Source: Deltaproteobacteria bacterium (GTDB lineage Bacteria > UBA10199 > JADFYH01). Taken from it: DNA of 64,000 bases. The notes under the pieces were generated by a model. That model was not told the origin of the DNA. It saw only the letters and a program-made list of their open reading frames with translations, and did no database searches. Each line of letters opens with the position of its first letter. The stretch's first letter is position 1. The position numbers were made by a program, and so were the translations under genes. Below are positions 36,498 to 61,936 of the stretch, in pieces. The stretch is taken from NCBI GenBank assembly GCA_015233135.1, contig JADFYH010000001.1:27930-91929 (forward strand), written 5' to 3'.

Positions 36498-36558
36498 ATT
36501 GGATGCAATTTGATCTCAATTGAGACCTTCTTCCAACTCAAATACCTGGGGAGGTATT

Positions 36559-46887: not shown

Positions 46888-48407
46888 CAGGTGTCTCCGA
46901 TTTTAAGTTTGGTATCTTTAAAATAAACTGCAGAAATCCATAAAATCCATATAGAGATAAGCGATACACACAAAAACTTTATTTTTTCTGGATTTGGTAA
47001 TTTCTTTGAATATTTATCATTTAACTCACCTGAAGATTCAGTAGATAAAAAAATCATCCTAGACAAACCGGTCATCGGAAAAATTTGTTTTGAAAGAACA
47101 TTTATCTGTTCATTATTTAATCTTATTCTAAAAATCTGATTACCATTAATTTTAGTTAATAATACTCCCCACGCAAAGAATGGAGGATAAAATTGAGGCT
47201 GCCAGTATGGCAAGGTATTATAATTAACGGTAGATGGAGTTACTTGAGAGGGAGGTAAAAGATAGTTTGATACAATAAGATTGTGCCTATAATTTATTGT
47301 AGGAAAAAATAATATGATTAAAAACAACATTGCACAAATAAATCTTTTTTTATTTTTTTGATACAGAATAAACAAACAATCTGAAATTTCTGGAATCAAT
47401 GATAGTAGGAATGGAAAAATAAGCCTGTTACCCGCTATCCCATTTGCCCCATGCCAAAATGGGAAAAAACCAAAAAACATAAAAAGAAAAATAATAGCGG
47501 TATATTTATAAATAGCTTTTTTAAATATGGATCTAAACATAATTGGGAGAGCTATCAAAGGAAAAGTCCACAGAATTCCATAAGAAAAACTAAATAAGGC
47601 TTTAAATAAATTACTTATCGCAGTAACAAACATTATATTTCCAGAGTTTTCCATCTGATCTGTGTAAAATTCCAAATGTCCAAAATTGACAGAATGTTTA
47701 AAATAAAACCACATACTTAATAGAGAAAGAAAAACTGTAAAATACTTAGATATAAAACTTTTTCGAACAGATGGGGGCATTTTAATTATGAGTTCTGTTA
47801 GAGTAATTAAACAAAAAATAATGGAGTATGTCTTGATAGAAACCATTAAAAAATCTAGGACAGCAATGCTAAATGGATCAAATTTAGACAAAAGATTAAA
47901 TGAACTATCGGTATAAAATAATCGAATTACTAGCAACAAACAGAGAGTATTTTCTATAAAACCACCTGTCAAAAAACTTATACCATAGCTCCCTACCCAA
48001 ATTAATAATAGAACCGACAGTGATACAGAAATACTTTTACTTCTTTGAAAAAGATAATTAAAAGAAATCACTAAAGCAAAAAAAATAACCCCCACCTGCA
48101 AATAACTCATAGCCCACTCTCGAACCATATCGTTCTTCAAGAAAGGGATAGCCTTGCTAATCACATCTAGTATATACGAATAACCACTCTGCATAAAAAA
48201 CCAAAATAAACGATGTGTAAACCATCCATCTAGTGAAGAATTGAGAGTGAAATTTGACCAAGAATAATTATATATTTTAAATTGTTGAACTGAAAGACAG
48301 ACAGCACCTTCATCTCCTCCACATTTTCCACGACTCACTGCAATAGAAGTTAGAACACATAAAAAGATAAATATATAATAATTTATATTTCTAGTTTTGG
48401 AGGACAT
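46887..48407 (-). CDS. GT-C-type polytopic membrane glycosyltransferase (ArnT/GtrC-like)
   Basis: 506 aa, many TM helices, immediately downstream of the GtrB-like GT2 (start/stop overlap). Confidence 0.45.
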   Translation of the reverse strand: MSSKTRNINYYIFIFLCVLTSIAVSRGKCGGDEGAVCLSVQQFKIYNYSWSNFTLNSSLDGWFTHRLFWFFMQSGYSYILDVISKAIPFLKNDMVREWAMSYLQVGVIFFALVISFNYLFQRSKSISVSLSVLLLIWVGSYGISFLTGGFIENTLCLLLVIRLFYTDSSFNLLSKFDPFSIAVLDFLMVSIKTYSIIFCLITLTELIIKMPPSVRKSFISKYFTVFLSLLSMWFYFKHSVNFGHLEFYTDQMENSGNIMFVTAISNLFKALFSFSYGILWTFPLIALPIMFRSIFKKAIYKYTAIIFLFMFFGFFPFWHGANGIAGNRLIFPFLLSLIPEISDCLFILYQKNKKRFICAMLFLIILFFPTINYRHNLIVSNYLLPPSQVTPSTVNYNTLPYWQPQFYPPFFAWGVLLTKINGNQIFRIRLNNEQINVLSKQIFPMTGLSRMIFLSTESSGELNDKYSKKLPNPEKIKFLCVSLISIWILWISAVYFKDTKLKIGDT

Positions 48408-48437: not shown

Positions 48438-48779
48438 TTACTCTAATTGGGCCTTCCAATTTTTAGAAAAAAACAAAGCCTTATCATCAATCATAATATC
48501 GCATCGAGGTTTTCCCATATATAATTCATGAAATTTAACACCCCAAGCTTTTAATTGATTTAAAGTTAAACTATACCCCTCTTTATACACCTTTATAATA
48601 TCATTATTATTTCTACCCATAAATCGCGATGTATAGAAATTTATTTTATGACCTTTCTCATAAAGTTTATTGATTAACTCAATAGCGTCTTTAAAAGGAG
48701 TCAAATTTTCGTAATCCCCCTCACATTGAGAACATATTGTGCCATCAATATCAAATAGGAATGTCTTTAACTGAGCCAT
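48438..48779 (-). CDS. HAD-superfamily phosphatase (small, GmhB-like context)
   Basis: Motif I FLFDIDGTI; 113 aa. Confidence 0.55.
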   Translation of the reverse strand: MAQLKTFLFDIDGTICSQCEGDYENLTPFKDAIELINKLYEKGHKINFYTSRFMGRNNNDIIKVYKEGYSLTLNQLKAWGVKFHELYMGKPRCDIMIDDKALFFSKNWKAQLE

Positions 48780-49435
48780 GATTGAAAATCAGAAATAAAT
48801 TGGTTTACCGAGGCGGTTGTTTGGGGATGTGCACACATTTTAGAAACAATTTTGTAACCGGCCGTAACTATGTGCGCGCCTTTATTCCAAGAACTTACGA
48901 TATCTTCTTCCCTTCGTATACTTCCCACAATGATTTCACAATTTAATTTAGATTGATTTAAAAAAGTTGCCACCTTTTCTATCACATTCAAAGGGTACCC
49001 ACTTACATCGAGCAGACGATTATAAAACAAAGATACATATTTTGCTCCCGCCAATGCAGCCAGCATCATTTGAGATTCCGAGAAGCAACAAGTGCAATTT
49101 ACTGGAATCCCTTTTTTTGATAGCTCTGATATTACTTCAAGTTCATCCCAGCCAATAGGAACTTTGATAGCAATATTTTTGTAGTCCAGCTTTTCATAAA
49201 ATTCTAACCCTTGTGATATCATTTCAGAAGGCTTGGTAGCAAACACTTCAACACTAATAGGTAAACCATCATTATATTTTTTTGTGAGAGAGATTATTTT
49301 TTTAATATGCCCTAAAAAATCAGACTTAGGTTCTTTTGAAATAATAGATGGATTAGTTGTAATACCCGACACGATCCCTTTTTTTAAAGAATCCTCAATT
49401 TCACTAAGATTTGCTGTATCGATAAATAATTTCAT
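48767..49435 (-). CDS. Fructose-6-phosphate aldolase / transaldolase (TalC/Fsa family)
   Basis: MKLFIDTANLSEI...GITTNPSI, the hallmark N-terminus of the Fsa/TalC subfamily. Confidence 0.8.
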   Translation of the reverse strand: MKLFIDTANLSEIEDSLKKGIVSGITTNPSIISKEPKSDFLGHIKKIISLTKKYNDGLPISVEVFATKPSEMISQGLEFYEKLDYKNIAIKVPIGWDELEVISELSKKGIPVNCTCCFSESQMMLAALAGAKYVSLFYNRLLDVSGYPLNVIEKVATFLNQSKLNCEIIVGSIRREEDIVSSWNKGAHIVTAGYKIVSKMCAHPQTTASVNQFISDFQSWLS

Positions 49436-49447
49436 AGGTTACCTTTC

Positions 49448-50290
49448 TTAAGAATCTACATGTTGATAAGTATTACCATCTTCTACAAGATGAGAATCTT
49501 TGTCGTCATCTTTTGTAGAAACTTCTATAATGACTGAATCTTCTAAACCCATTCTACAATGCATTAAACCGACAGGTATCACAAAGGCATCACCAGGATT
49601 CAAGATAAGAGATTTATTCTCAGCCCTTCCTACTCTGACACCCACCTTCACCAAACCAGACTGTAAAAAATAAGCCTCTTTTTTCTTACAATGAAATTCC
49701 ATACTGCCCCGACTGCCCGCCTTTAGAACTATTCGTTTAGCTGCATAATCATCGCTTAAAATACTCTCTATAGAGCCCCAATACTTTTCTCTATAATCAA
49801 AAGTATGTTTAATATTAACTTCGGTTTTTTTTTCAGAAAAATCTTCTACTTGAAGTTTTACAGAAGAAGGCGCTGGTTCAAGACAATAAACATCTTCTTT
49901 ACTTGCTGAATCTCCAAAAAAATAAACTACACTTTTTTCAAAAGAATAAAGACTATGGGCAATCATCTTTGGTATCTGAAATACATCTCCTTTCTTGAGA
50001 AGATGCCACTTGGTATTTCCATCTTTTTCTATAATTTTTAAAACTACCAAACCTTCTTCTACAAAAATAGCCCCGTTTACACTTCTGTATAATTTTAATT
50101 GAGTAGATTTATGTGGAATTAAGTTTAATTGTCTCAAGCAAAACTCTGACTCAGACACAATATCCAATTCATAACCAGAGGGCGTTAATTGCTTAGAGGC
50201 TGTCAACACTCTATTAATTGAATCAAAACTTAATCCATATTCAGACATTGGATTGGCCATAATATTTTGATTTTCCATGCTTTCTTTCAA
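49448..50290 (-). CDS. Bicupin protein (putative sugar isomerase/epimerase)
   Basis: Two cupin-like beta-barrel motifs (G..H...H and PxG..H patterns); AT-rich island. Confidence 0.35.
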   Translation of the reverse strand: MKESMENQNIMANPMSEYGLSFDSINRVLTASKQLTPSGYELDIVSESEFCLRQLNLIPHKSTQLKLYRSVNGAIFVEEGLVVLKIIEKDGNTKWHLLKKGDVFQIPKMIAHSLYSFEKSVVYFFGDSASKEDVYCLEPAPSSVKLQVEDFSEKKTEVNIKHTFDYREKYWGSIESILSDDYAAKRIVLKAGSRGSMEFHCKKKEAYFLQSGLVKVGVRVGRAENKSLILNPGDAFVIPVGLMHCRMGLEDSVIIEVSTKDDDKDSHLVEDGNTYQHVDS

Positions 50291-50933
50291 AGTGTTTTAT
50301 AAACAGTTGAGAATTGGGCTTACTTTCGCCCTTACTTAGTAACAGCGTCTTAAATGCCAAACGAGCTACTTGCTCTACTATATACGAGTTTTCATAAGCT
50401 TGTTGTATATTCTTTCCCCAAGCAAATACCCCATGACTTTCAATGAGGGCAGCAGGGATTTCAAGCATATTTACTTTTTTTTCCTGAAAATAAGCTATAA
50501 TTCTCTGACCAATACTTACCTCATAATTTTCATTAATCTCATTATCAGTAAAATTTCCAATCACTGGAACATCACTTTTAAAATAATCCGCATGAGTTGT
50601 ACCTAAAATTGGAATAGGCATTTTCGCCTGAGCAAATGCAGTAGCATAAGGCGAATGAGTATGAATAACGGCTCCAATTTCATTGGAACCTTTATACAAC
50701 TCCAAATGAGTGGGTGTATCCACAGAAGGCTTATACTGACCAACAAAACCACCTTCCAAATTTACTTTTACAATTTTTTCTGGAGTAAGATCTTTAAAAG
50801 ATACACCAGAGGGCTTAATGTAGATATGTTTTCTATCTGGTTCAATTGCGCTTGCATTTCCCCAAGTTAAAACAACTAAACCGGATTGAATAAGCTCTTG
50901 GTTAATTCTTACAACTTCATTTATAATAGACAT
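50241..50933 (-). CDS. Class II aldolase/adducin-family protein (fuculose-1-P aldolase / ribulose-5-P 4-epimerase-like)
   Basis: GAVIHTHSPYATAFA metal-binding His motif. Confidence 0.75.
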   Translation of the reverse strand: MSIINEVVRINQELIQSGLVVLTWGNASAIEPDRKHIYIKPSGVSFKDLTPEKIVKVNLEGGFVGQYKPSVDTPTHLELYKGSNEIGAVIHTHSPYATAFAQAKMPIPILGTTHADYFKSDVPVIGNFTDNEINENYEVSIGQRIIAYFQEKKVNMLEIPAALIESHGVFAWGKNIQQAYENSYIVEQVARLAFKTLLLSKGESKPNSQLFIKHFERKHGKSKYYGQSNV

Positions 50934-50943
50934 AGAAAAATCA

Positions 50944-51924
50944 TTATTTAAGATTTGAAATATACTCGTTTAATTCAGATTTTAAAGGAGGCTTAGTTCC
51001 TTTTTTAGTTACTGACAAACCCGCCCAACAATTAGCTAAAAAAAGCGACTCTTCAGGATACGATAAAGGATTACTCAAAGAAAACGATGCAAGGAATGAA
51101 TCTCCAGCGCTACAAGGATCAACCTCTTCAACCTTTATGGAAGAGACAAAGAATGTTTCTCGATTTTTTTCTTTTAAGAACGCACCTTGATTACCCAACG
51201 TAAGACAAATACTAGAGTTTAGTAACGCACTCAGCTTAGTTAAATCTTGTTGTGGATTAAAATTCTGCAAAACTTGATTAGCCTCTTTTAAATTTAAACA
51301 AATATAATCCGAACCGGCATAGTTCAAGTGGTTAGATTCCCGTTGAGACACTTGAGAGCTTGCGAATACAGGTACTTTAAACTTAAAAGACAAATCATTA
51401 ATACTCTTTGCAAGAAAATTACTTATCATTCCATGACGATAATCCACCAGAAGCAACAAATCGAAACTTGAAATGTTTTTTTCTATATAAGCTATAATTT
51501 CTTTTTCAACTTGAGATTCAATTTCAGTATTATCAATTTGATCAAACTGCAAAAGCTTATAACCATCTACCCAAAATCTTTTTTTAACTGTCGTACATTT
51601 ATTTGCAATTTTAATTTTATGGAAATTTAATTTAGGATGAGACCACTCGTCATAATATTTACCAGCAAGATCTTCACCTATAACAGACACAAACGTTACC
51701 TGAGCACCCAGCTCCAGAAGATTTGTCACCACACAACTAGCGCCACCAAAGGAACACTCAGTTTTTTCTTCTCGAGCAACAATAGTAGGCGTTTCAGCAG
51801 ATTTACCGATAGCATGACCATATACATATATATCTAGTATAGAATCGCCTATTACTAAAACTTTTTTATTACCAAATTCTTTGACTATTTGAGACAAAAT
51901 ATTTTTATTTATAACTTTTCCCAT
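50944..51924 (-). CDS. PfkB-family sugar kinase resembling HldE domain I (heptose 7-phosphate kinase)
   Basis: VLVIGDSILDIYVYG, SFGGASCV, DPCSAGDSFLA, ANCWAGLSVTKKGT. Confidence 0.7.
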   Translation of the reverse strand: MGKVINKNILSQIVKEFGNKKVLVIGDSILDIYVYGHAIGKSAETPTIVAREEKTECSFGGASCVVTNLLELGAQVTFVSVIGEDLAGKYYDEWSHPKLNFHKIKIANKCTTVKKRFWVDGYKLLQFDQIDNTEIESQVEKEIIAYIEKNISSFDLLLLVDYRHGMISNFLAKSINDLSFKFKVPVFASSQVSQRESNHLNYAGSDYICLNLKEANQVLQNFNPQQDLTKLSALLNSSICLTLGNQGAFLKEKNRETFFVSSIKVEEVDPCSAGDSFLASFSLSNPLSYPEESLFLANCWAGLSVTKKGTKPPLKSELNEYISNLK

Positions 51925-52799
51925 GTCTCTTTTTCTTTAATTTTTTTCAGAGTCTGAGTAGTAGAATATCCCTCAATAAAAGGGAAAATTTTTACTTCAA
52001 CCTGTTCGGGAATCGCATCTCTTATTTTCACTTCCTGAGCAGTCCACTCTCCACCTTTTACCACTACATCAGGCAATATTTGTTCGATAATATTTTTTGT
52101 TTTAACATCATCAAAAATAATAACCTCATCTACTTCTTGAATAGACTCCAGAAGCTTTTTTCTATCTCCTTCAGAATTAATAGGTCGACTTGGTCCCTTC
52201 AACTCCTTCACTGCTCTATCGGAATTTATACCCACAATTAATTTTGACCCTAAGCTTTTTGCAAATTTTATTAGCTCTATATGTCCCGTATGAAGAACGT
52301 CAAACACACCATTGGTAAATACAATTTTACCAGGTCTGTGATAACTTATTCTCTCTACCCTTTTTACATGGCGACCTTCACCAAAGGGTGTATCTAACCA
52401 CATATCCACAATCTGAGTTGTAACTTCCAGCGAAGTAATCCAAGCACCTAGACACAACACATTCGAATCATTATGTTCTCTACACTTGGGAGCACTTTCC
52501 AAATTATGGATGAGAGCAGCTCTTACATTAGGGAAACGATTTGCCATTATACTCATCCCAACCCCGGTACCACAAACAAGTATCCCTTTACTCACATCCC
52601 TTTTATTGACAATTTGACCAAGTTGACTGGCGTAATCCGTATAATCTACTTTTTTATTAATGTCGTAAGGACCTAAATCGATGCAATTGTATGATTTTTC
52701 TTTAAGATAAGAATGGATTATTTTTTTTAGCTCAATACCATTATGGTCTGAGGCGATAACAATATTTTTTTCTTCATTGCTCATCAAAAACTCCGACAA
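51909..52799 (-). CDS. Fusion of RpiB/LacAB-family sugar-phosphate isomerase and HldE domain II-like nucleotidyltransferase
   Basis: N-terminus IVIASDHNGIELKK...CGTGVGMSIMANR (RpiB fold); C-terminus FTNGVFDVLHTGHIELIKFAKSLGSKLIVGINSDRAVKELKGPSRPI...VVKGGEW (cytidylyltransferase-like, close to HldE adenylyltransferase). Confidence 0.75.
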   Translation of the reverse strand: MSEFLMSNEEKNIVIASDHNGIELKKIIHSYLKEKSYNCIDLGPYDINKKVDYTDYASQLGQIVNKRDVSKGILVCGTGVGMSIMANRFPNVRAALIHNLESAPKCREHNDSNVLCLGAWITSLEVTTQIVDMWLDTPFGEGRHVKRVERISYHRPGKIVFTNGVFDVLHTGHIELIKFAKSLGSKLIVGINSDRAVKELKGPSRPINSEGDRKKLLESIQEVDEVIIFDDVKTKNIIEQILPDVVVKGGEWTAQEVKIRDAIPEQVEVKIFPFIEGYSTTQTLKKIKEKETWEKL

Positions 52800-52880
52800 T
52801 TGAGAAGGCTTTTTCAGGTATAAAATCTTTTAGGGCCTGTACCTAGTTTACCAACTAGGATCAAGCATAAAAATTGCCCA

Positions 52881-54086
52881 TTAAAGCAGATTTAAAGAAG
52901 CTTCATAGACCTTATAAACATCAATATTTTGAACACATTCCATCTCAAGACATCCTTTACTTAGATAGCAAGGGCTGCAAGGTGTAGGATAAGAAATGAA
53001 CATATTTTTATCGGAAGGGGGTCTCCATTGAAAAACATTAGTAATACCATGACCAATAATCACACATGGCTTATCAAAAGCCGAAGCTATATGGGCTATT
53101 ACAGAATCAGCACAAATCACAAGGTCTGCAAGATAAACCGCTGAAACAAACTCTTGCCAATTGAATTGATTGCACAGGTTTAAACAATTAGAAAAACCCT
53201 CAATTGCTTTCTGAATATTGATATTTTCTCTCGCTCCAGCCCCTGTAAAAAGAATGGTATATTTCTGATCTTTAAAAAGATTTATCAACTGACTCCATTT
53301 TGTCAGTGGCCACTCTTTAATACTTGCACCAGAACCAATATGAAAAACTATATAGGCATTTGCCTCAAATCCACATACCTTTAGTTTTTTTAACAAATAA
53401 TTTAAATCTTCATAGCTTACTTTTAGAGAAGGCCTTAATTTTTCAACATCCAGTTTTTTTGAAAAAGTGAATTCTAATAAATCAATATGATATTGTGCGA
53501 CAGGCTGATTTTTTTCTTTCCAGTCGAGGGAGTGAGTAAGAAGGTTTTTAAATCCTCCACTCGAGTATCCTGTGCGAATAGGAATATTTGCTTTCCAAAT
53601 TAGAGGGATTGAATTTGGGAAATAATAATACAGATCAATTGCGACATCATAATGAATTGACCGAATTTCACTCAGAGCTTTTTTACGACTAAAATAATAT
53701 TGTTTTATTTTTTCAAATAAATTCTTTGAGGATCGATTTAGCTTCCAATGATCAAAAGTATGAATCCAATCGACTTGAGGATTATGCTCGATTATTTGTT
53801 TAGCCCAGCTTCCTACTAGAAAACCTATCTTTGCATTAGGATAGTTTTTTTTAATTATTGGAATAATAGAAGTGGCAATAACAACATCACCAAGATGAGA
53901 AATATTACAGATAAGAGCAGCGTTAAAATAATTTAACCTTGGGCTTTGCTTTGACTTTTTTAGGATTTTAATTTTAAAAAGATAATTAGTAAAAATAAGG
54001 AGGAAATAAAGAATACGGTTTCTTACTAAAAACTTCCCACTTAAAGGAGATGTTTTTCGACTACCTATCATTTCTTTACCACACAA
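52881..54086 (-). CDS. Glycosyltransferase family 9 (LPS heptosyltransferase-like)
   Basis: NISHLGDVVIATSIIP...FHIGSGASIKEWPL...LADLVICADSVIAHIASAFDKP typical GT9 layout. Confidence 0.7.
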   Translation of the reverse strand: MCGKEMIGSRKTSPLSGKFLVRNRILYFLLIFTNYLFKIKILKKSKQSPRLNYFNAALICNISHLGDVVIATSIIPIIKKNYPNAKIGFLVGSWAKQIIEHNPQVDWIHTFDHWKLNRSSKNLFEKIKQYYFSRKKALSEIRSIHYDVAIDLYYYFPNSIPLIWKANIPIRTGYSSGGFKNLLTHSLDWKEKNQPVAQYHIDLLEFTFSKKLDVEKLRPSLKVSYEDLNYLLKKLKVCGFEANAYIVFHIGSGASIKEWPLTKWSQLINLFKDQKYTILFTGAGARENINIQKAIEGFSNCLNLCNQFNWQEFVSAVYLADLVICADSVIAHIASAFDKPCVIIGHGITNVFQWRPPSDKNMFISYPTPCSPCYLSKGCLEMECVQNIDVYKVYEASLNLL

Positions 54087-54814
54087 AGTAAATTAGCTGA
54101 GTATATCCCCCCCATACTATCTCCGTTGGCAATCAACATATAGGCTTTAATGCACGGCTTAACCAAAAAATTCCACAACAGTCTTCTTATCATACTGATT
54201 GGTCCATGAACATATGGGGGCAACTCAAAAAATGAAAAATTGGGACTAAATCCTGATAACAACAAACTTTGTCTTAAACTAGACAGTGTATACGCACGCT
54301 TATGGGTAATATCACCATAGGTATGTACTGATATAGGACATATAGCATTCGGAACCTGTATCAGCAGCACTCCTCCGGTTTTCAACGCTACAAAACAAGC
54401 ACGTAATAGATTTATTGAATCCTCCAGATCTATATGTTCGAGAATATCACAAGCAATAATTGTATCGTAAACAGACGTTTTATCTTCTAAAAATGAAAAA
54501 GCATCCGCTAAAAAAATATCGTCCAATCCTAACTTCTCCTTAGCATATACAACTTGCTCTTCACTTATATCTATACCTAACAATTCGGTAAACCCATTTT
54601 CCTTTAATGCCTTTAAATACCTCCCGTATCCACAGCCTATCTCTATAATTTTGGATTTCTTATCATGAGGCAAATGAGGTAGAAGAAACTTTTCAAAATA
54701 TCCCCGACTCCACTCAGTTAACGACTCTTCATTAGTATCAACCAACATTGCAGTCGAAGTATACTTTTTGAAAAATCTCTCATTATCAATTATTTTAGAT
54801 GTATTTTGGATCAT
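54068..54814 (-). CDS. Class I SAM-dependent methyltransferase
   Basis: IIEIGCGYGRYL motif I, DTIIACDILEH motif. Confidence 0.7.
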   Translation of the reverse strand: MIQNTSKIIDNERFFKKYTSTAMLVDTNEESLTEWSRGYFEKFLLPHLPHDKKSKIIEIGCGYGRYLKALKENGFTELLGIDISEEQVVYAKEKLGLDDIFLADAFSFLEDKTSVYDTIIACDILEHIDLEDSINLLRACFVALKTGGVLLIQVPNAICPISVHTYGDITHKRAYTLSSLRQSLLLSGFSPNFSFFELPPYVHGPISMIRRLLWNFLVKPCIKAYMLIANGDSMGGIYSANLLCVVKK

Positions 54815-54815
54815 A

Positions 54816-55799
54816 TTATTTAATCTTCACAACACGAGATTTAATAAACTTATAAATAAAGCTTATTGGAGCCTTTGGGATTAATAATAAAGGCACGCAA
54901 ACTCCCCAAAAAATAAAATATTTTTTATAATAAGGAAACATAAGTACAAATAATCCATTAGTGCTCTTGTTATCTCTTATTTTTACGAGAATATCGTGAA
55001 CAACAAACTCTTTAATAATTCTACATTGAGCTTTATTAACTGCTTTTAAGGTATATCCTATATATTTAAGCTTATTTAGAATCAGCGACATTCCTATTAC
55101 ATTGTATTTATACCAATCGTACCCCCCTGAGTTGTTCCCTCTATTGCAAACCACAGGAATAGGATTATAAATCACATTACATTTTGGAAAGAGACCATAG
55201 TAAGCCGCATAAACCTGTGGATATCCATAGTCCAGAAAAAAATCGTACTCTTTATCTGGGCGCTTAATAAAACAAGACTTTTTAAAAACAAGTGAAGACA
55301 CATAACCTAAATGTATACCAAATTTTGATAAAATATCGTTAGGATTGCTGAACGTTTCCTCAGATTGTATCCTAAAAAAAAAATTCTTTATTAATTTCGA
55401 AAAATCTTTTGACCAAACAGAATAGTTATTTATCACTAGATCATAATTGAGTTTTATATATTGCATAATTATGCCAATGGCGTTTTTGGTAACTTTATCA
55501 TCATCCCCTAAAATCCAAATATATTTACCTGCAACTCTTTTTGTTAGAGAGCGTACATTTCTTTCGGCACCTATATTTTCTTCATTCCTGTAGTAAGTAA
55601 TGAAAGGAAATGAAATTAAATAAGCCCTTACCATTTTATCTGTTCCATCCATACTAGCATTATCGGAAATAATGATTTCTATTTCCGATTCAAAGTCTTT
55701 TATAGATTCTATTACACTATCTAAACATTCCCTTAACATAAATGCTCTATTGTAGGTAGGGATACATATAGACAACAAAATTTCTGGATTAGAGTTCAT
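54816..55799 (-). CDS. Glycosyltransferase family 2
   Basis: LSICIPTYNRAFML, DNASMDGT, DDD. Confidence 0.75.
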   Translation of the reverse strand: MNSNPEILLSICIPTYNRAFMLRECLDSVIESIKDFESEIEIIISDNASMDGTDKMVRAYLISFPFITYYRNEENIGAERNVRSLTKRVAGKYIWILGDDDKVTKNAIGIIMQYIKLNYDLVINNYSVWSKDFSKLIKNFFFRIQSEETFSNPNDILSKFGIHLGYVSSLVFKKSCFIKRPDKEYDFFLDYGYPQVYAAYYGLFPKCNVIYNPIPVVCNRGNNSGGYDWYKYNVIGMSLILNKLKYIGYTLKAVNKAQCRIIKEFVVHDILVKIRDNKSTNGLFVLMFPYYKKYFIFWGVCVPLLLIPKAPISFIYKFIKSRVVKIK

Positions 55800-55814
55800 T
55801 TATTTTAAATAAAA

Positions 55815-56690
55815 TTACATAACCTCGCGTTTTTTCAAACCCCAAGGCTTGTTTATTTTAGGTGATAGAAATGGAAATACATTTTTCAATGCTAATTTTA
55901 AAAATTTAGGAGTGCTACTCTTCATTTTTTTTAATATACGCCCTTTTGCTGAACTTTGAATCTCTCCTGTAAATGCTGTTGTGTAGAATTTTTGTGTAGG
56001 TATTTTATCAGAAGAGGAGTCTGTAATTTTCTCGGCAACAAAAAAAGTCCCCAGAGAGTTATTAGAAGCTATTACTGTATAGTATTCCCAGGGCATTTCA
56101 TAAAAAGTCCATTTTGTATCTGGATCGTATTTACTATGCTCAAATAATAATGCCTGCATATTTATAAACTTATTTTCGCCATAAAAATCATAAAACAAAG
56201 TTGGGCTAAATTGATAAAAACCATGCTGAACCATGTTGTTAGTAGGTGAAAAATGTAACACTCTACCACCATTCTTTAACATCAAACTTATACTTTTAAA
56301 TACTTCTCTAATATTAAAAACATGCTCCGAAGTACCTCCATCAATTATTAAATCAAACTTATTATATAAGTTAGGCGGAACAGGAAAATTCAAATCTTGA
56401 ATCAACTCTGCACCTTCCATATCACTCACATCCATAGACATTACGTTTTTTACCCCTAATAAATCAAAAAAATACCTCTCATCAAGCTGAGCAGTTTCAC
56501 AGCCTATAGGCTTTCTGAATAAAATTGAATTATCACCAAAAATAGGACTTAAAGACTCTTTTTGAAAAGCTTTCAACACTTCAGAAGTTGAAACATATAT
56601 ATTTTGCCTACCTAATGTAAGCACACTCTCAAAAGGTCTCTTTTTATACTCTCGTAATATCATTCTTAAACTAGGATATAACAACCCCAT
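55815..56690 (-). CDS. Hypothetical protein (possible methyltransferase-like fold)
   Basis: 291-aa ORF in an operon with GT genes; no firm motif. Confidence 0.3.
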   Translation of the reverse strand: MGLLYPSLRMILREYKKRPFESVLTLGRQNIYVSTSEVLKAFQKESLSPIFGDNSILFRKPIGCETAQLDERYFFDLLGVKNVMSMDVSDMEGAELIQDLNFPVPPNLYNKFDLIIDGGTSEHVFNIREVFKSISLMLKNGGRVLHFSPTNNMVQHGFYQFSPTLFYDFYGENKFINMQALLFEHSKYDPDTKWTFYEMPWEYYTVIASNNSLGTFFVAEKITDSSSDKIPTQKFYTTAFTGEIQSSAKGRILKKMKSSTPKFLKLALKNVFPFLSPKINKPWGLKKREVM

Positions 56691-56698
56691 AACCCCTC

Positions 56699-58048
56699 CT
56701 AAGCTTCAGCATGCCATTCTCTCCTATATTCATAAAAGATACTTGTTGTCCACGGCATAATTACTATTGCATTGATAATTAAATACGAACTTACAGCTCC
56801 AATAGGACCAAACTTACTTCCATAAAACCACACACACAATCCAATCAATAAGCTACCAACAACAGACATTCCGGTTAGAACCTCTTTTTTATGGGCTCTT
56901 AAATATGCTGCTTCACAAAGAGTGATATGAAAAAATATAGTCGCTAGTGAAAACACGACAACCTCTTTGATAGGCAACAATCTATCTAAAATTTTTATGT
57001 GATTTAGTTTTAAAATTATTAGTAATGAACTAAATAAGGACACCACAAACATAAGCACAAAAAATGATTTTATAGAATTTCTAAACCAAATTTTATCCAA
57101 AGATTTATATTCTTTCTTTGCTATCAAAATTCCAAAGCTTGGTATTTTTATTTGAATCCAAGCTATTCCAATATTTTGAATAGCACCAACTATTTGCCAA
57201 GTTAAACCCATTTGCCCAGCTACAACAGGCCCATAATAATGAAACATTACTGGATTGAATAATGAAAATGAAAAGTAATTTACTAAGCCCGCCAACGCAA
57301 GCCTTGATTGCATTGGTAGAACTTCTTCTTTCCAATTTATTACATCGGTTTGCTTAGTTCTATATATAGATTTAATAAAATTTTTATACTTAATTAATAA
57401 AGCTAGATTACATAAAAGTAAAAAAACTGGTTGTGCTAAGGATGCCCATAATTTTGCCTTTAATCCTAGTAATATACAAAAGGCAATACTGCCTAAAACT
57501 CCCTGGATAAACCTATATTTATATAAAGTTTTTAGTTGATTACAACCTTCGAGAATAGAAATTATTGGTAGCAAAAATAACTGCAGGGCAGAGAGAGCGA
57601 CTAAAACCAACCACGGAAATAACCAAATATTTAATCCCTCGTAATGCGATTTAGAAAAAAATAAAACTCCTATAATGCTTACTATTGCTAAGAATAAAAT
57701 AGAGACCACGAGATACCATCTTACAGTTAACTGAAATAAACTTTTCAACCTCGATAAGTTTGTTTTTTCTCCAATAATATATCCTTGATCATCAAAGTTA
57801 AGGTTAGACCATTCATGACTAGCAAATTGAATGATGACAGTACTGAATGCGAGTTCAAAAAAAATTTGAAGCCCTACCAAGCTACTAAAAGTATAGTAAA
57901 AGCCCTGCAATTTAGGCTCTAAATACTTGTATATGAAAAATATGGTAAGAGGACCAGAAAAAACAGACCAAATTCTGGAGGAAAGATAAATTACAAGAGT
58001 ATAATCAACTTCGAAAAACTTTAAAATTTTTCTTATGAAAAAAATCAC
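56699..58048 (-). CDS. Polysaccharide flippase (Wzx/MOP superfamily)-like membrane protein
   Basis: 449 aa, about 12 TM helices, polysaccharide locus context. Confidence 0.55.
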   Translation of the reverse strand: MIFFIRKILKFFEVDYTLVIYLSSRIWSVFSGPLTIFFIYKYLEPKLQGFYYTFSSLVGLQIFFELAFSTVIIQFASHEWSNLNFDDQGYIIGEKTNLSRLKSLFQLTVRWYLVVSILFLAIVSIIGVLFFSKSHYEGLNIWLFPWLVLVALSALQLFLLPIISILEGCNQLKTLYKYRFIQGVLGSIAFCILLGLKAKLWASLAQPVFLLLCNLALLIKYKNFIKSIYRTKQTDVINWKEEVLPMQSRLALAGLVNYFSFSLFNPVMFHYYGPVVAGQMGLTWQIVGAIQNIGIAWIQIKIPSFGILIAKKEYKSLDKIWFRNSIKSFFVLMFVVSLFSSLLIILKLNHIKILDRLLPIKEVVVFSLATIFFHITLCEAAYLRAHKKEVLTGMSVVGSLLIGLCVWFYGSKFGPIGAVSSYLIINAIVIMPWTTSIFYEYRREWHAEA

Positions 58049-58956
58049 AAAATAGAAGTAGCCACTTTAATGATATTTTCTATTGATAAACCATACAAAG
58101 ATCGAAGGGCCATCTGCGATGCTGCTATTGTTTGAACTTTCCTATCCAATTTAATGGGCATAAAACGCACGTAAAAGCTCTCCTGCATCAAAACTTCAGA
58201 TACCACTGAAGCTAACCCACCTTCCCCATGTTCTTCGATAGTTATAATTTTTTTTGTTTTAATAATTGACTGCAAAATACTATCAACATCTAGAGGGGAA
58301 ATAGTATGGGCACTAAGCACCTCAACTGAAATTTTTCTACTTTCAAGGTGTTGTACAGCTTGCATGGCTAGATCAAGAACTCCGCCTGTAGTAATAAATG
58401 TAACATCCGTTCCTTTTTTTACTCTTATAATTTTACCAATTTGAAAGTCTGGAATATCTTGATAAACAATTGGCTCGCCAGCTTTACCTAAACGCAAGTA
58501 ACACGGGCCATTCCATTTTACCATTGCTTCAGTAGCAAGCTGAGTTTCAACAGGATCACCCGGAGCAATCACTGTCATATTTGGTAATACACGCATTAAC
58601 GCTAAATCTTCTATTCCATGGTGCGTATACCCTTGTGTGCTATATGTAAAACCACCTCCTACCGAGACTATTTTTACGTTAGCATTATGATAGCAAACAT
58701 CATTTCTAATTTGCTCTAAACATCTAACTACAGGAAAATTTGCAATCGAATAAGTAAATACAGTTTTACCAGACAATGCCAAGCCTGCCGCGACTCCAGT
58801 CATATTCTGTTCCGCAACCCCTACGTTAATAAAACGACTTGGAAACTTCTCTATAAATGGTTCCAAAACAGAAAAACCTAAATCACCGCATAACAAGAAT
58901 ATGTTTTCATCATGCTCGGCCAACTCACACAATGTTTTTACAAAAGTGTTTCTCAC
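58045..58956 (-). CDS. Transketolase, C-terminal (pyrimidine-binding) subunit of split transketolase
   Basis: VGVAEQNMTGVAAGLALSGK...GGGFTYSTQGYTHHG. Confidence 0.85.
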   Translation of the reverse strand: MRNTFVKTLCELAEHDENIFLLCGDLGFSVLEPFIEKFPSRFINVGVAEQNMTGVAAGLALSGKTVFTYSIANFPVVRCLEQIRNDVCYHNANVKIVSVGGGFTYSTQGYTHHGIEDLALMRVLPNMTVIAPGDPVETQLATEAMVKWNGPCYLRLGKAGEPIVYQDIPDFQIGKIIRVKKGTDVTFITTGGVLDLAMQAVQHLESRKISVEVLSAHTISPLDVDSILQSIIKTKKIITIEEHGEGGLASVVSEVLMQESFYVRFMPIKLDRKVQTIAASQMALRSLYGLSIENIIKVATSIL

Positions 58957-59765
58957 TGCAAATCTAGCTCCTTTAATGCTTTTTCTAATTGCTCAATATT
59001 AGGTGATTTATAATGCCACTCCAGCTTATCCTCCATGAAACTAACTCCTTTACCTTTAACTGTATGAGCAATTACTACGCTGGGCTTACCTTTATTAAAG
59101 GGAATTAACTTAAAAACATCTTCAATTTCTTTATGAGAATGACCATCAATTTCTTTCACTACCCAACCAAAAGACTCAAACTTGGATTTTAATGGCTCTA
59201 AGTCTAAGACGTCTTTCACAGTACCAAAGCTTTGTATCTTATTATAATCAACAATTAAAATGAGGTTATCCAACTTTTGATGAGGAGCAAAAAGAATAGC
59301 TTCCCAATTTGATCCTTCGTCCAACTCTCCATCACTGACTAAAGTGAAAACACGATAATCTAAAGAATCTGCCTTTCCAGCTAGAGCCATACCACACGCA
59401 ATAGGTAATCCATGACCTAATGAGCCAGTTGAGACCTCTACTCCAGGCACATAGTGGCTGATATGACCCATTAACCTAGAGCCATCTTCACAGTAAGTAT
59501 CAAGCTCCTCTTTTGGAAAGAAATCTAACTCACCAAGCAAGGCATACATAATTGCTGCAGCATGTCCTTTACTTAAAATAAATCTATCACGATTTTTATT
59601 TTTTATATCAGCAGGCGAGATTCTAAGAACTGTAGTGTACAACACTGAAATAATATCAGCCATAGAGAAACAACTTCCCACATGAGAAGCCTTTGATTTA
59701 TGAACCATTTCAAGAGTTTTTTTTCTTATTTTTTTAGATAAGATTAACGAATTATTAGTTAGCAT
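58953..59765 (-). CDS. Transketolase, N-terminal (TPP-binding) subunit of split transketolase
   Basis: GHISHYVPGVEVSTGSLGHGL, GELDEGSNWEA. Confidence 0.85.
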   Translation of the reverse strand: MLTNNSLILSKKIRKKTLEMVHKSKASHVGSCFSMADIISVLYTTVLRISPADIKNKNRDRFILSKGHAAAIMYALLGELDFFPKEELDTYCEDGSRLMGHISHYVPGVEVSTGSLGHGLPIACGMALAGKADSLDYRVFTLVSDGELDEGSNWEAILFAPHQKLDNLILIVDYNKIQSFGTVKDVLDLEPLKSKFESFGWVVKEIDGHSHKEIEDVFKLIPFNKGKPSVVIAHTVKGKGVSFMEDKLEWHYKSPNIEQLEKALKELDLQ

Positions 59766-60681
59766 TAAGCTTTCCTCTATACCAATCCACCGTCTTTTTT
59801 ATACCATATTCTAATTTTGTTTTTGGATACCAATTAATGGTTGATTTTATTTTTGTAATATCTGCTTGCAGATGCATTACTTGATCTTCACGATAGGGAA
59901 CTTCTCCAAATTTAAGCTTTATATTTTTATCAATATATACCGAAATCATTTCGACAATATTTTTTATACTCTGCACTTTACCTGAACCCAAATTAAAAAC
60001 ACCTTCAGCTTTTTGATTAATACCTAATTGATAAATTGCCTCAACAGCATCTTCAACATACAAATAATCCCACAGCTGTTCACCCAAAGTAAGCTTAGGA
60101 ATTTTTTTATTTAAAAGCTGATTTATAACTGAAGGCAACATCCAATACTCATGATCCATAGGACCATAAGTTGAAAACACTCTGACCCATACTAGTTTTG
60201 AATTACACAATTTAGATAATTGAGAAGCAATTAACTGAACAGATAATTTAACTGTACCATACAGAGTTGTAGGGGAGGTCAAATCCTCTTCTTTTGCTAT
60301 TCTATTTAAAGGACCATATTCTGCTTGAGAACCTAAAATAACCCATCTTTTACAATCTGCTTTATGACAAATAGAGAGTAAGTCGAAAGTACTCTTTAGA
60401 TTTGAAGTTACTTGAGCAAAGTCATTTCTTGAATTATTGGCAACACCTGACCAACCTAGATGAAATAACACTTCTGGTTTAAATTTAAAAATTTCTTGTT
60501 CAAGATTTTCTATAGAGAAGTAATCACAAGTGAGTACTTTAATTTTATCTAAACACGCACCAATTCTCCAAAAATCAGAATTCGGACCAGCTACTAATAA
60601 TAACTCATGTTTATTTTTGCAGAGTAATTTTACCAAATATGAACCAATGAATCCTGTTCCGCCAGTGATCAACATTCTCAT
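59755..60681 (-). CDS. NAD-dependent epimerase/dehydratase
   Basis: ITGGTGFIGSYLVKLL. Confidence 0.75.
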   Translation of the reverse strand: MRMLITGGTGFIGSYLVKLLCKNKHELLLVAGPNSDFWRIGACLDKIKVLTCDYFSIENLEQEIFKFKPEVLFHLGWSGVANNSRNDFAQVTSNLKSTFDLLSICHKADCKRWVILGSQAEYGPLNRIAKEEDLTSPTTLYGTVKLSVQLIASQLSKLCNSKLVWVRVFSTYGPMDHEYWMLPSVINQLLNKKIPKLTLGEQLWDYLYVEDAVEAIYQLGINQKAEGVFNLGSGKVQSIKNIVEMISVYIDKNIKLKFGEVPYREDQVMHLQADITKIKSTINWYPKTKLEYGIKKTVDWYRGKLNAN

Positions 60682-61928: not shown

Positions 61929-61936
61929 GTCTTCCC

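Follow-up and report, generated by a model that had tools for sequence, protein, structure and literature searches.

A window of 64,000 nucleotides, the whole stretch of DNA analysed here, carries one copy of a six-gene cassette (positions 48438–52799) that is uncharacterised to date and comprises an RpiB–nucleotidyltransferase (NT) fusion, a PfkB kinase, an AraD-type epimerase, a cupin, a transaldolase (TAL) and a mini-HAD phosphatase. Judging from sequence, the cassette most likely provides an activated C7 or C8 sugar for surface glycans. On balance we lean towards a route in which the cassette and a neighbouring GT9 glycosyltransferase would produce and use a nucleotide-activated, probably ADP-linked, higher-carbon aldose, following the logic of ADP-heptose synthesis without GmhA or GmhB. 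The genes lie in an island of 30–35% GC that begins at about 40.3–40.8 kb, the remaining window having ~41–55% GC, and are arranged as follows:

48438–48779, minus strand: mini-HAD phosphatase (type IIIA-like), 113 aa (HAD motifs, NCBIfam, PHROG)
48767–49435, minus strand: small (class 3) transaldolase (Pfam TAL_FSA, 2.9e-42)
49448–50290, minus strand: bicupin, candidate ketose-to-aldose isomerase (Pfam Cupin_1, 6e-11)
50241–50933, minus strand: AraD-type class II aldolase-fold 4-epimerase (Pfam Aldolase_II, 9.5e-49)
50944–51924, minus strand: PfkB-family sugar-phosphate kinase, HldE-domain-I / HldA-like (Pfam PfkB, 1.4e-26)
51909–52799, minus strand: fusion of RpiB and RfaE-domain-II-like NT (Pfam LacAB_rpiB, 8.8e-50; CTP_transf_like, 1.4e-20)
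52881–54086, minus strand: GT9 (heptosyltransferase-family) glycosyltransferase (Pfam Glyco_transf_9, 3.4e-24)
58045–58956, minus strand: TktC, split transketolase (Pfam Transket_pyr and Transketolase_C)
58953–59765, minus strand: TktN, split transketolase (Pfam Transketolase_N)
59755–60681, minus strand: SDR (Pfam)
60678–61928, minus strand: C-methyltransferase (Pfam)
61937–63025, minus strand: CDP-glucose 4,6-dehydratase-like (Pfam)
63026–63793, minus strand: glucose-1-P cytidylyltransferase-like (Pfam)

Every open reading frame flagged in a preliminary description of this DNA was recovered on the minus strand with unchanged coordinates, and its domain calls agree with Pfam, including those of a class II aldolase/epimerase, a small HAD phosphatase, a heptosyltransferase-family GT9 and a single reading frame that joins an adenylyltransferase to RpiB. 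Two of its calls needed refinement. The ‘TalC/Fsa’ gene encodes a TAL_FSA transaldolase but not an FSA, since Glu and Phe stand at the FSA positions Gln59 and Tyr131; its closest solved structures are the transaldolases of B. subtilis, T. maritima and T. acidophilum (1e-36 to 6e-35, against 1e-16 for FSA), and its family motif is SLFYxR instead of SPF(V/L)GR. Likewise, the ‘split HldE’ is HldE-like in both its kinase and its NT, but both score under the NCBIfam equivalog cut-offs (rfaE_dom_I, 167 versus 345 bits; rfaE_dom_II, 144.6 versus 181.5 bits). As a whole, the idea of a GmhA-free, HldE-like sugar-activation unit stands, whereas the proposed supply of sedoheptulose-7-P by a split transketolase does not and the proposed substitution of RpiB for GmhA is weakened.

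The order RpiB–NT / PfkB / (AraD) / cupin / TAL / HAD is kept in 63 loci besides the window, and the reading frames overlap or nearly abut; a grouping repeated in 63 independent loci goes far beyond what chance would give. Fifty-four of these loci are viral contigs from IMG/VR, as long as 284 kb, and the other carriers are three marine metagenome contigs (L002–L004), the DPANN archaea Pacearchaeota and Woesearchaeota, Saccharibacteria, two Acidobacteria and a SAR11 single-cell genome. The cassette is horizontally mobile, and in cellular carriers it is embedded in polysaccharide clusters. With the window included, PfkB and the cupin are each present in 62/64 loci, TAL in 61/64, HAD in 56/64 and AraD in 54/64. 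The fusion occurs in every cassette locus retrieved with it as query; an unfused form of the cassette is seen in L151. A GT9 gene adjoins the cassette in L001, L005, L007, L008, L009 and L151, and the GT9 of the window, which matches the NCBIfam heptosyltransferase II profile below its cut-off (97 versus 134.6 bits), is the probable user of the cassette product.

The fusion protein likely begins at Met6, which gives 291 aa and matches the NCBI call. Both domains are present in 120/120 best database homologues (59–69% identity, the window's own sequence excepted), and among 25 homologues there is little or no variation at RpiB residues D18, H19, C76, T78, H109, N110, R143, H144 and R147, which are catalytic, or in the NT motifs HxGH and YSTT. 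By its score the RpiB domain is an ordinary rpiB equivalog (NCBIfam, 153.9 bits; cut-off 138.65), but the RpiBs of the fusions group in a clade of their own and in 119/120 cases carry Trp at the phosphate-ligand site Arg113 (T. cruzi RpiB numbering), features that would fit a new substrate. The same Trp also occurs in RpiB–PRK fusions, in unfused RpiBs and in RpiB–DUF436 fusions, the last showing either R or W. At the nucleotide-preference motif the NT reads ‘VKIFPFIEGYSTT’ and lacks the ‘STTR5’ arginine on which a nucleotide-preference rule is based (PMC11461863), and ATP is therefore the likely nucleotide.

In almost every cassette locus the PfkB gene comes after the fusion gene, and the sole PDB relative of its product is HldA of B. 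cenocepacia (4e84, 2.6e-12). The AraD-type protein passes the NCBIfam profile PRK08193, ‘L-ribulose-5-phosphate 4-epimerase AraD’ (269.7 bits; cut-off 257). Across 40 cassette homologues the E. coli AraD residues N28, G45, S74, D76, H95, H97, D120, H171 and Y229 do not vary, K42, S44 and H218 hardly vary, and V, T or I takes the place of S75 throughout; the enzyme has retained the catalytic residues of an L-ribulose-5-P 4-epimerase and an almost complete phosphate pocket. This gene is optional, being present in 53/63 loci besides the window with at least five independent absences, and none of the residues checked in RpiB, cupin, TAL, kinase and HAD convincingly co-varies with its presence. P0173 is a fusion of RpiB with AraD, and in L151 the two are neighbours. 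In the mini-HAD, the motifs DIDGT, T50, K90 and D98–D99 are invariant in bacterial, archaeal and cyanophage homologues; it matches phrog_1238 (7.7e-27), and its best NCBIfam match, below cut-off, is the capsule biosynthesis phosphatase TIGR01689 (1.6e-11).

The absence of a SIS-domain GmhA, noted in the preliminary description, extends to the whole 64 kb, where tblastn with E. coli GmhA and a SAR11 SIS protein found no homologue; in the locus DNA, a SIS/GmhA-like gene occurs in just 1/64 cassette loci, window included. Of 74 loci whose RfaE2-like NT is unfused, 18 carry gmhA no more than 6 kb away, and both the cupin and the mini-HAD are missing from all 18; in unfused NT loci gmhA often lies directly upstream of the NT, the place held here by the RpiB domain. 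Two cassettes have heptose genes for neighbours: in L007 a bona fide HldE (537 bits; cut-off 521), an additional HldC and a GmhB-like protein, and in L009 a second, HldE-like PfkB/NT pair together with a GmhA-like SIS protein. It thus seems probable that the cassette does not duplicate the ordinary ADP-heptose route. This coexistence and the low HldE scores of the kinase and NT favour a different NDP-heptose or octose, which had been offered as an alternative reading of the island.

Missing from the earlier gene list was the bicupin, a conserved member of the cassette that likely starts at the ATG of ‘MSEYGLSF’ near 50233. The C-terminal one of its two cupins is similar to type II mannose-6-P isomerase and to D-lyxose isomerase (Pfam MannoseP_isomer, 1.1e-4; Lyx_isomer, 4e-3), profiles that match 24/42 (best 2.5e-8) and 18/42 family members, respectively. 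Invariant residues include E198, H200, E205 and H244, a putative metal site, as well as K169, K185, K203 and R219. The AlphaFold2 model has a bicupin fold (pLDDT 92.8), for which fold and PDB sequence searches returned generic bicupins only; the viral cupins are mono-cupins that align to bicupin residues 168–280. Like GmhA, enzymes of the PMI and lyxose isomerase families act on 3S ketoses to give 2S (manno/lyxo) aldoses, and transaldolase products are 3S,4R. We regard the cupin as a better candidate than RpiB for GmhA's role, with weak profile matches hinting at the isomerase function itself.

NT, cupin and mini-HAD also travel together in ~35 cyanophage or marine-virus records, and neither RpiB nor GmhA was found in the cyanophages that bear this triad. 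In T4-like cyanophages (P-SSM2, P-TIM68, S-SSM7, S-SM2 and others) the three adjacent genes are among the ‘LPS/heptose’ genes; all three are homologous to their cassette counterparts, the NT at 45–50% and the mini-HAD at 42–49% identity, and the cupin shares PHROG 7851. These phages differ from the cassette in having no RpiB fusion, AraD or adjacent transaldolase, P-TIM68 having an E1/transketolase-like protein in the transaldolase's place, and their product could differ from the cassette sugar. Database names for these cyanophage proteins are misleading (HldE-like NT, ‘cysteine dioxygenase’ cupin, ‘phosphoheptose isomerase’).

For the route that we favour, we infer the order of steps, the isomerase, the chain length and the nucleotide as follows. 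The RpiB domain would convert ribulose-5-P to ribose-5-P, and AraD, where present, may give an alternative pentulose-5-P. The transaldolase would transfer a three-carbon unit from fructose-6-P or sedoheptulose-7-P to an aldose phosphate, yielding octulose-8-P from a pentose-5-P acceptor, like LmbR (see below), or sedoheptulose-7-P from erythrose-4-P. The PMI/lyxose-isomerase-like cupin would then turn the ketose phosphate into a manno-configured aldose phosphate, in the role of GmhA, after which PfkB would phosphorylate O-1, the mini-HAD would strip the terminal phosphate as GmhB does, the NT would form the NDP-sugar, probably with ATP, and GT9 would add the sugar to the island's polysaccharide. 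This route does not cleanly explain AraD. A dedicated RpiB seems superfluous for either a C7 or a C8 sugar, since ribose-5-P and sedoheptulose-7-P are found in metabolism everywhere; the RpiB–NT fusion in every retrieved locus would be natural if RpiB were on-pathway, and counts against the route as drawn. To our knowledge, GT9 and HldE-like enzymes act in heptose systems only, and we know of no natural ADP-octose.

The ADP-L(D)-glycero-β-D-manno-heptose pathway (GmhA, HldE or HldA plus HldC, GmhB, HldD, GT9) shares this logic, from ketose phosphate to aldose phosphate and on through an anomeric kinase, a terminal phosphatase and an NT to GT9, and HldA, HldC and WaaC/F have homologues in the kinase and NT of the cassette and in the GT9. 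The cassette, however, has neither a SIS isomerase nor a GmhB-type phosphatase, its NT has RpiB, not the kinase, as fusion partner, and it has three extra conserved enzymes (transaldolase, PMI-like cupin, AraD-type epimerase). The GDP-octose of lincomycin and celesticetin is made by LmbR (transaldolase), LmbN (isomerase), LmbP (kinase), LmbK (phosphatase) and LmbO (nucleotidyltransferase); Sasaki and colleagues reportedly established the lincomycin reactions in 2012, with LmbR making octulose-8-P from ribose-5-P. We know of no other characterised sugar-nucleotide route that opens with a dedicated transaldolase on ribose-5-P. Following the transaldolase come the same four activities as in the cassette, but the transaldolase alone is likely homologous, the Lmb isomerase, kinase and NT belonging to what we take to be other families (SIS, GHMP and NTP_transferase). 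The Lmb pathway is a Streptomyces antibiotic pathway without RpiB, AraD or cupin, whereas ours is a glycan cassette; its transaldolase, isomerase, kinase, phosphatase and nucleotidyltransferase appear in a published gene table (PMC12945683).

In the preliminary description the RpiB domain was itself a possible non-orthologous replacement for GmhA, converting sedoheptulose-7-P to heptose-7-P for PfkB, HAD and NT. The transaldolase would then top up sedoheptulose-7-P, the cupin would be an accessory epimerase, and the product would be D-glycero-D-gluco if RpiB stereochemistry were kept. The fusion in every cassette locus, the lack of gmhA in 63/64, the position of gmhA in unfused loci and the separate, Trp-bearing clade all speak for this proposal, which we nevertheless consider unlikely. 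The domain passes the rpiB cut-off, and its Trp is not fusion-specific, recurring in the other fused and unfused RpiBs noted above. Moreover, characterised RpiB-family enzymes yield 2R aldoses, RpiB proper using 3R ketoses, whereas sedoheptulose-7-P is 3S and the GmhA product 2S. Cyanophages retain NT, cupin and HAD without RpiB or GmhA, and the proposal leaves unexplained both AraD and the invariant cupin, which is equally conserved and had been overlooked.

We give a similarly low probability to ordinary ADP-D-glycero-β-D-manno-heptose synthesis, with the cupin for GmhA, the mini-HAD for GmhB, and RpiB, transaldolase and AraD boosting sedoheptulose-7-P in viruses and reduced genomes. Heptose enzymes are indeed the closest characterised relatives of the kinase, NT and GT9, viruses or DPANN/CPR with poor central metabolism account for many of the carriers, Tkt follows TAL in L123 and L124, and transaldolase is a known cyanophage auxiliary gene while rpiB is enriched in marine viromes (PMC4022391). 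Yet full-size genomes equipped with heptose enzymes (L007, L009) also carry the cassette, AraD has no role in sedoheptulose-7-P synthesis, RpiB and TAL without Tkt make no coherent route to it, and the kinase and NT fall far under the HldE cut-offs. Viral rpiB (K01808) and talC, both rpiB and transaldolase being enriched in marine viromes, have been read as auxiliary metabolic genes (PMC4022391), and the abundance of the cassette in IMG/VR contigs is a point of likeness. That RpiB and transaldolase merely serve ribose-5-P, NADPH and nucleotide supply beside unrelated glycan genes is nonetheless highly improbable here, where rpiB is one domain of a fusion in a sugar-activation cassette, physically joined to an HldC-like NT. 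The six-gene synteny, with its tightly packed reading frames in viral, archaeal and bacterial loci, already contradicts such a reading, as does the placement of cellular copies within polysaccharide clusters; a role in glycan synthesis fits the viral cassette rpiB better than one in nucleotide synthesis.

The genes at 58045–63793 are a separate conserved module and no part of the cassette. The closest TktN homologues (65–69% identity) come from Chthonomonas calidirosea (L148), a JGI contig (L149) and an Omnitrophica MAG (L150), three unrelated genomes from which the cassette is absent. The JGI and Omnitrophica loci keep the same six-gene order (NTP-transferase / 4,6-dehydratase / C-methyltransferase / SDR / TktN / TktC), and in C. 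calidirosea a sulfotransferase and a kinase replace the C-methyltransferase with the remaining order kept. With these nearest homologues in a cassette-free module, and Tkt next to TAL in only 2/63 cassette loci, the split transketolase is not supported as the sedoheptulose-7-P supply and belongs instead to a CDP-hexose module. Yersiniose-type branched sugars, in which a TPP-dependent enzyme sets a two-carbon branch on a CDP-4-keto-hexose (PMC5399914), offer a functional analogy for this CDP-hexose / C-methyltransferase / split-transketolase module. Unlike yersiniose-type systems, the window has no ddhC/D-type 3-deoxygenation genes, and in place of YerE, an acetolactate-synthase-like flavoenzyme, it has the split transketolase.

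Leaving aside the split transketolase, the sugar genes of this region form a widespread, mobile cassette. Every domain named in the preliminary description was borne out by Pfam and NCBIfam, and a bicupin gene that had been overlooked lies among them; the genes that matter here are the following.

48438–48779, minus strand: HAD-like protein of 113 amino acids, hereafter mini-HAD (profile search)
48767–49435, minus strand: TAL_FSA protein, the transaldolase of the cassette (Pfam and NCBIfam)
49448–50290, minus strand: bicupin (new to the list)
50241–50933, minus strand: Aldolase_II protein that passes an NCBIfam AraD subfamily model (Pfam and NCBIfam)
50944–51924, minus strand: PfkB kinase, best model rfaE domain I (Pfam and NCBIfam)
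51909–52799, minus strand: one ORF in which a LacAB_rpiB domain is fused to a cytidylyltransferase-fold domain resembling rfaE domain II, hereafter the RpiB–NT fusion, NT being its nucleotidyltransferase (Pfam and NCBIfam)
52881–54086, minus strand: GT9 glycosyltransferase (Pfam and NCBIfam)
58045–59765, minus strand: split transketolase (Pfam and NCBIfam)

The RpiB–NT fusion represents a large family: its best 120 database matches, its own sequence aside, are all two-domain proteins 59–69% identical to it, and source names among the relatives include Nanoarchaeota, Woesearchaeota and Pacearchaeota. DNA around such relatives, taken from three collections, provided 63 loci with a full-length fusion, of which 54 are IMG/VR viral contigs (some 100–284 kb long) and three are marine metagenome contigs bearing PhoH and PD-(D/E)XK genes, their PhoH, taken as a guide to the kind of virus, giving only distant matches (≤38% identity). 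The remaining loci belong to a Pacearchaeota MAG, to species-representative genomes of a Woesearchaeote, a Saccharibacterium and two Acidobacteriaceae, and to a SAR11 single-cell genome, while the GenBank phage collection (50,697 records) yielded no full-length fusion. The gene order (RpiB–NT, PfkB, sometimes AraD, cupin, transaldolase, mini-HAD) hardly varies across the 63 loci, and with the window counted the kinase and the cupin are each present in 62 of 64 sequences, the transaldolase in 61, the HAD in 56 and the AraD homologue in 54, several loci being cut by contig ends. The AraD homologue behaves as an optional accessory of the cassette, as it is missing from the RpiB–NT tree at five or more separate points; a search for residues in RpiB, cupin, transaldolase, PfkB and HAD that co-vary with its presence gave none that were convincing. 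One locus (L151) carries an unfused version ordered GT9, AraD, RpiB, PfkB, transaldolase and cupin, with the NT further along. A GT9 gene adjoins the cassette in most cellular loci (L001, L005, L007, L008, L009, L151 and the window) and not in the viral ones. Our literature search found no description of the cassette, of a cupin-type higher-ketose-phosphate isomerase (a cupin acting on sedoheptulose-7-phosphate included), of the RpiB–NT fusion or of a link between RpiB and heptoses.

The split transketolase had been proposed to supply this cassette with sedoheptulose-7-phosphate, a role that its genomic company does not support. Homologues of its N-terminal half number in the thousands, and the three that we examined (66–68% identity; found in the complete Chthonomonas calidirosea genome, on a JGI metagenome contig and in an Omnitrophica MAG) all sit in one array, namely NTP_transferase, 4,6-dehydratase-type SDR, in some cases a C-methyltransferase, SDR, and the N- and C-terminal transketolase halves, which is the window order from 63793 to 58045. 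The RpiB cassette is absent from all three of these loci, and a transketolase adjoins the transaldolase in only 2 of the 63 cassette loci. Because the homologues examined occupy a cassette-free module and a transketolase so rarely neighbours the transaldolase, the split transketolase is best taken to belong to a conserved module for CDP-hexose modification and not to supply sedoheptulose-7-phosphate. In the window this module (58045–63793, minus strand) comprises a glucose-1-phosphate cytidylyltransferase-like protein, a 4,6-dehydratase-like SDR, a C-methyltransferase (Methyltransf_13 and 14), a second SDR and the split transketolase, its probable product being a 6-deoxyhexose with a C-methyl group and/or a two-carbon branch. 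By analogy, the transketolase may add the two-carbon branch, as in the TPP-dependent step of yersiniose synthesis (PMC5399914).

How far the cassette resembles the ADP-heptose pathway can be judged enzyme by enzyme. The reported lack of a SIS-domain GmhA stands: neither E. coli GmhA nor a SAR11 SIS protein found a homologue within the 64-kb window (E≤0.01), and in the DNA covered around the cassettes a SIS protein accompanies only 1 of 64 cassette-bearing sequences (L009). A tblastn search of the window with E. coli GmhB was likewise negative. The idea of a split HldE holds only in part, for the kinase and the NT are HldE relatives but both fall clearly under the HldE equivalog cut-offs. Against the rfaE_dom_I equivalog (TIGR02198) the kinase scores 167 bits, where the cut-off is 345 and the HldE of locus L007 reaches 363.8, and its only PDB relative is HldA (2.6e-12); against rfaE_dom_II (TIGR02199) the NT scores 144.6 bits, where the cut-off is 181.5 and the HldE and HldC of L007 reach 191.9 and 195.5. 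The NT does keep the catalytic HxGH and STT motifs. The mini-HAD is more remote from known models, the best being TIGR01689 (44 bits, cut-off 162), with HAD-SF-IIIA at 22.7 bits (cut-off 44.6). Its likeness to capsule phosphatases had led us to consider PRPP-based ribosylation, an idea that was dropped as incompatible with the kinase, the NT and the GT9.

Two loci carry heptose-type genes of their own: the L007 cassette has as neighbours a genuine HldE (537 bits, cut-off 521), a GmhB-like phosphatase and an extra HldC, and the L009 cassette an HldE-like pair, a GT9 and a GmhA-like SIS protein. Such neighbours, together with the sub-threshold kinase and NT, suggest that the cassette product differs from ordinary ADP-D-glycero-D-manno-heptose. 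A gmhA gene lies within 6 kb at 18 of 74 loci with an unfused RfaE2-like NT, none of the 18 having the cupin or the mini-HAD, so that the SIS/GmhB pair and the cupin/mini-HAD pair are alternative partners of the RfaE2-like NT family. The cassette would work by a logic like that of the ADP-heptose pathway but lacks its defining GmhA and GmhB and fails the HldE equivalog tests.

The front end of the cassette appears to handle pentose phosphates. By its sequence the RpiB domain qualifies as a putative ribose-5-phosphate isomerase B (RpiB/LacAB family), scoring above both the rpiB equivalog TIGR01120 (153.9 bits, cut-off 138.65) and PRK05571 (173.1, cut-off 135) and keeping all of the RpiB catalytic residues invariant (Asp-His, Cys-x-Thr, His-Asn and Arg-His-x-x-Arg). 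In the tree the RpiB domains of the fusions make up a clade of their own, within which an RpiB–AraD fusion (P0173) also falls. We also considered a tryptophan (Trp120), the one striking change in the domain, as a decisive marker of a new RpiB specificity; it is present in 119 of 120 fusions at the position of Arg113, which in T. cruzi RpiB is among three arginines that stabilise the phosphate (PMC4882579). The same Trp occurs, however, in unfused RpiBs, in an RpiB–phosphoribulokinase-family fusion and in RpiB–DUF436 fusions (R and W both occur), for which reason it was rejected as decisive and is not good evidence for a new substrate.

The transaldolase had been described as TalC/Fsa, of which the transaldolase half is retained. 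In an alignment that includes E. coli FSA and the Tal proteins of B. subtilis and T. maritima, the window protein and the cassette consensus both carry Glu and Phe at the positions of FSA Gln59 and Tyr131; a Schiff-base Lys with Glu and Phe marks transaldolases, and Gln59 with Tyr131 marks fructose-6-phosphate aldolase. The protein also scores below the NCBIfam model fsa_talC_mipB (166.5, cut-off 245.95) and carries a family-specific SLFYxR instead of SPF(V/L)GR at the arginine that binds phosphate. The Glu and Phe point to a bona fide small transaldolase. The AraD homologue passes the PRK08193 subfamily model (269.7 bits, cut-off 257) and falls short of the TIGR00760 equivalog (237.8, cut-off 389.1). 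When 40 cassette homologues were compared at 13 AraD reference positions, using the E. coli AraD sequence and the literature roles of its residues (Zn ligands, catalytic Asp120 and Tyr229, phosphate pocket), nine positions were invariant, three nearly so (K42, S44, H218) and one, S75, was replaced by V, T or I. The Zn ligands, both catalytic residues and nearly the whole phosphate pocket are thus kept, only S75 being systematically changed, which argues for a pentulose-5-phosphate as the probable substrate. RpiB and AraD are moreover fused in P0173 and adjacent in L151; with RpiB passing at equivalog level, the cassette would hold two pentose-5-phosphate enzymes plus a transaldolase.

If GmhA is missing, some other enzyme would have to do its job, and the RpiB domain had been suggested as the replacement. 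In favour of that suggestion are the lack of GmhA and the separate clade of the fusion RpiBs, while the ordinary rpiB score, the stereochemistry and the gene content of cyanophages turn the balance towards the cupin. Sedoheptulose-7-phosphate and other transaldolase products are 3S,4R ketoses, and GmhA, phosphomannose isomerase (PMI) and lyxose isomerase convert 3S ketoses to 2S (manno/lyxo) aldoses; characterised RpiB-family enzymes yield 2R aldoses, and RpiB proper takes 3R ketoses. Homologues of the NT, cupin and mini-HAD lie side by side in ~35 cyanophage and marine-virus records (P-TIM68, P-SSM2, S-SSM7, S-SM2 and others), and in these cyanophages neither RpiB nor GmhA was found; P-TIM68 has in addition a PfkB-like kinase and an E1/transketolase-like protein beside the three. 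An NT/cupin/HAD(/kinase) core thus exists without RpiB, transaldolase or AraD, the cupin being its only isomerase candidate. On the stereochemistry and this core we favour the cupin over the RpiB domain as the candidate enzyme for GmhA's job.

The cupin itself belongs to a distinct, uncharacterised family with 48 database members, in which the C-terminal barrel is highly conserved and is all that the viral versions retain. Its only sugar-specific relatives are PF01050 (the C-terminal domain of type II mannose-6-phosphate isomerase) and PF07385 (D-lyxose isomerase), matched by 24 (best 2.5e-8) and 18 of 42 members, respectively; with PF01050 the window cupin scores 22.8 bits, just under the 23.6 cut-off, and the homologue from marine contig L002 scores 27.5, above it. 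Invariant residues include E198, H200, E205 and H244 (Glu-x-His...Glu...His) and several Lys and Arg. An AlphaFold2 model was confident (pLDDT 92.8), and as a guide to function it returned from the PDB by Foldseek only generic bicupins (oxalate decarboxylases and seed globulins), just as profile and sequence searches of the PDB gave only weak generic cupins.

What the cassette makes would depend on the acceptor of its transaldolase. RpiB and AraD would prepare a pentose-5-phosphate, to which the transaldolase would add three carbons to give an octulose-8-phosphate; this would be the most coherent use of the RpiB/AraD/transaldolase trio. Alternatively, the transaldolase makes sedoheptulose-7-phosphate from erythrose-4-phosphate and the product is a heptose, chain length (C7 versus C8) not being readable from sequence alone. 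The octulose reading has a chemical precedent in LmbR, a transaldolase that extends a pentose-5-phosphate by three carbons to octulose-8-phosphate. After this start the lincomycin GDP-octose pathway runs through an isomerase, a kinase, a phosphatase and a nucleotidyltransferase (PMC12945683). The likeness to the cassette front end is one of functional analogy, and the cassette is a member of neither the ADP-heptose nor the lincomycin octose pathway. As to the nucleotide, the cassette NT lacks an arginine that is reported to broaden nucleotide use (PMC11461863), and we would accordingly expect an ADP-sugar.

Tentatively, then, we put forward as possible, if somewhat doubtful, that the cassette is an unrecognised and environmentally widespread route to ADP-manno-octose, in which a dedicated transaldolase adds three carbons to a pentose-5-phosphate (ribose-5-phosphate, or an L-pentose-5-phosphate via AraD) and the cupin is a new higher-ketose-phosphate isomerase. 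Octoses are so far known from the antibiotic lincomycin; were the octose route true, they would be common surface-glycan units of marine viruses, DPANN archaea, Saccharibacteria and SAR11, and the viral 'rpiB' auxiliary gene would serve glycan and not nucleotide synthesis. The nearest published remark to the cassette is the enrichment of rpiB and transaldolase in marine viromes, which that study took as a sign that nucleotide synthesis is supported (PMC4022391). The interest of the cassette lies in its breadth (viruses, DPANN, CPR, SAR11, Acidobacteria), its testability and the possible new activated sugar, which if the model holds could be an octose or an isomeric heptose. A nucleotide-heptose-type biosynthesis would then have non-orthologous first and third steps (cupin for SIS isomerase, mini-HAD for GmhB), pathways of this kind would escape surveys of heptose enzymes that rely on homology, and a gene set of dozens of large uncultured viral genomes, DPANN, CPR and SAR11 would gain a concrete role. 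Since the innate immune receptor ALPK1 has NDP-heptoses among its ligands, a related molecule would be of interest there.

The same model would correct two misleading cyanophage names. The 'phosphoheptose isomerase' of these phages (P-TIM68 gp195, locus L146, 7748–8086; S-T4 gp109, locus L147, 9915–10262; phrog_1238) has no SIS domain and is 42–49% identical to the window mini-HAD, with the same DxDGT, T, K and DD motifs, and the neighbouring 'cysteine dioxygenase' (phrog_7851) is a PMI-like cupin, so judged by their sequences both names look wrong. According to a commentary, a cross-kingdom survey of heptose enzymes reported viruses to be without the phosphatase (PMC11461863); the mini-HAD may be that enzyme. 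In some viral contigs a second mini-module, made up of an NT, a cupin and in some cases a PfkB, follows the cassette directly or lies near it (L097, 13688–15164; L103, 13382–14883; L002, 742–1628), which echoes the cyanophage triad and suggests two related activated sugars per virus.

Further domain arrangements occur among relatives of the fusion. Two (P0002, P0003) are RpiB–NT–NT proteins in which the STT motif is degenerate in the NT next to RpiB (YSTK, HSTG) and intact in the distal NT, which suggests that a fused NT can turn into a structural partner; P0021 is NT–RpiB–NT, L001 carries an NT–HAD fusion (13461–14327), and L007 and L008 have an extra NT on the opposite strand. In locus L085 (294–2954) the RpiB–AraD fusion P0173 adjoins an inositol-monophosphatase-family phosphatase and a SWEET-type transporter, a set that may be a small pathway making and exporting free pentose.

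The cassette of the window lies in a low-GC island, with ~30–35% GC from about 40.3–40.8 kb to the window end (38% in the last 2 kb) and mostly 41–50% in the rest, up to ~55% right before the island edge. At this left edge GC drops from ~55% to <30% between 40.3 and 40.9 kb, and a Wzy_C-type ORF (40617–42005, minus strand) overlaps by ~190 nt with the 3′ end of a gene (36520–40803, plus strand) for a secreted protein of 1427 amino acids with several similar repeats of ~100 residues; no tRNA gene, sought as an island-edge marker, was found in the whole window. Between 63793 and 45712 every ORF is encoded by the minus strand, and these ORFs overlap or nearly abut. Directly downstream of the cassette (45712–48407, minus strand) are a 391-aa GT2 that ends in membrane helices and a polytopic membrane protein of 506 aa without a Pfam match, a pair that resembles a polyprenyl-phosphate-sugar synthase and a GT-C-type transferase. 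Between the two sugar modules (54068–58048, minus strand) lie a GT2 (327 aa), a 449-aa multi-pass membrane protein that had no Pfam match and is possibly a flippase, and two methyltransferase-like proteins (248 and 291 aa), which make methylated sugars likely in the final glycan of the island.
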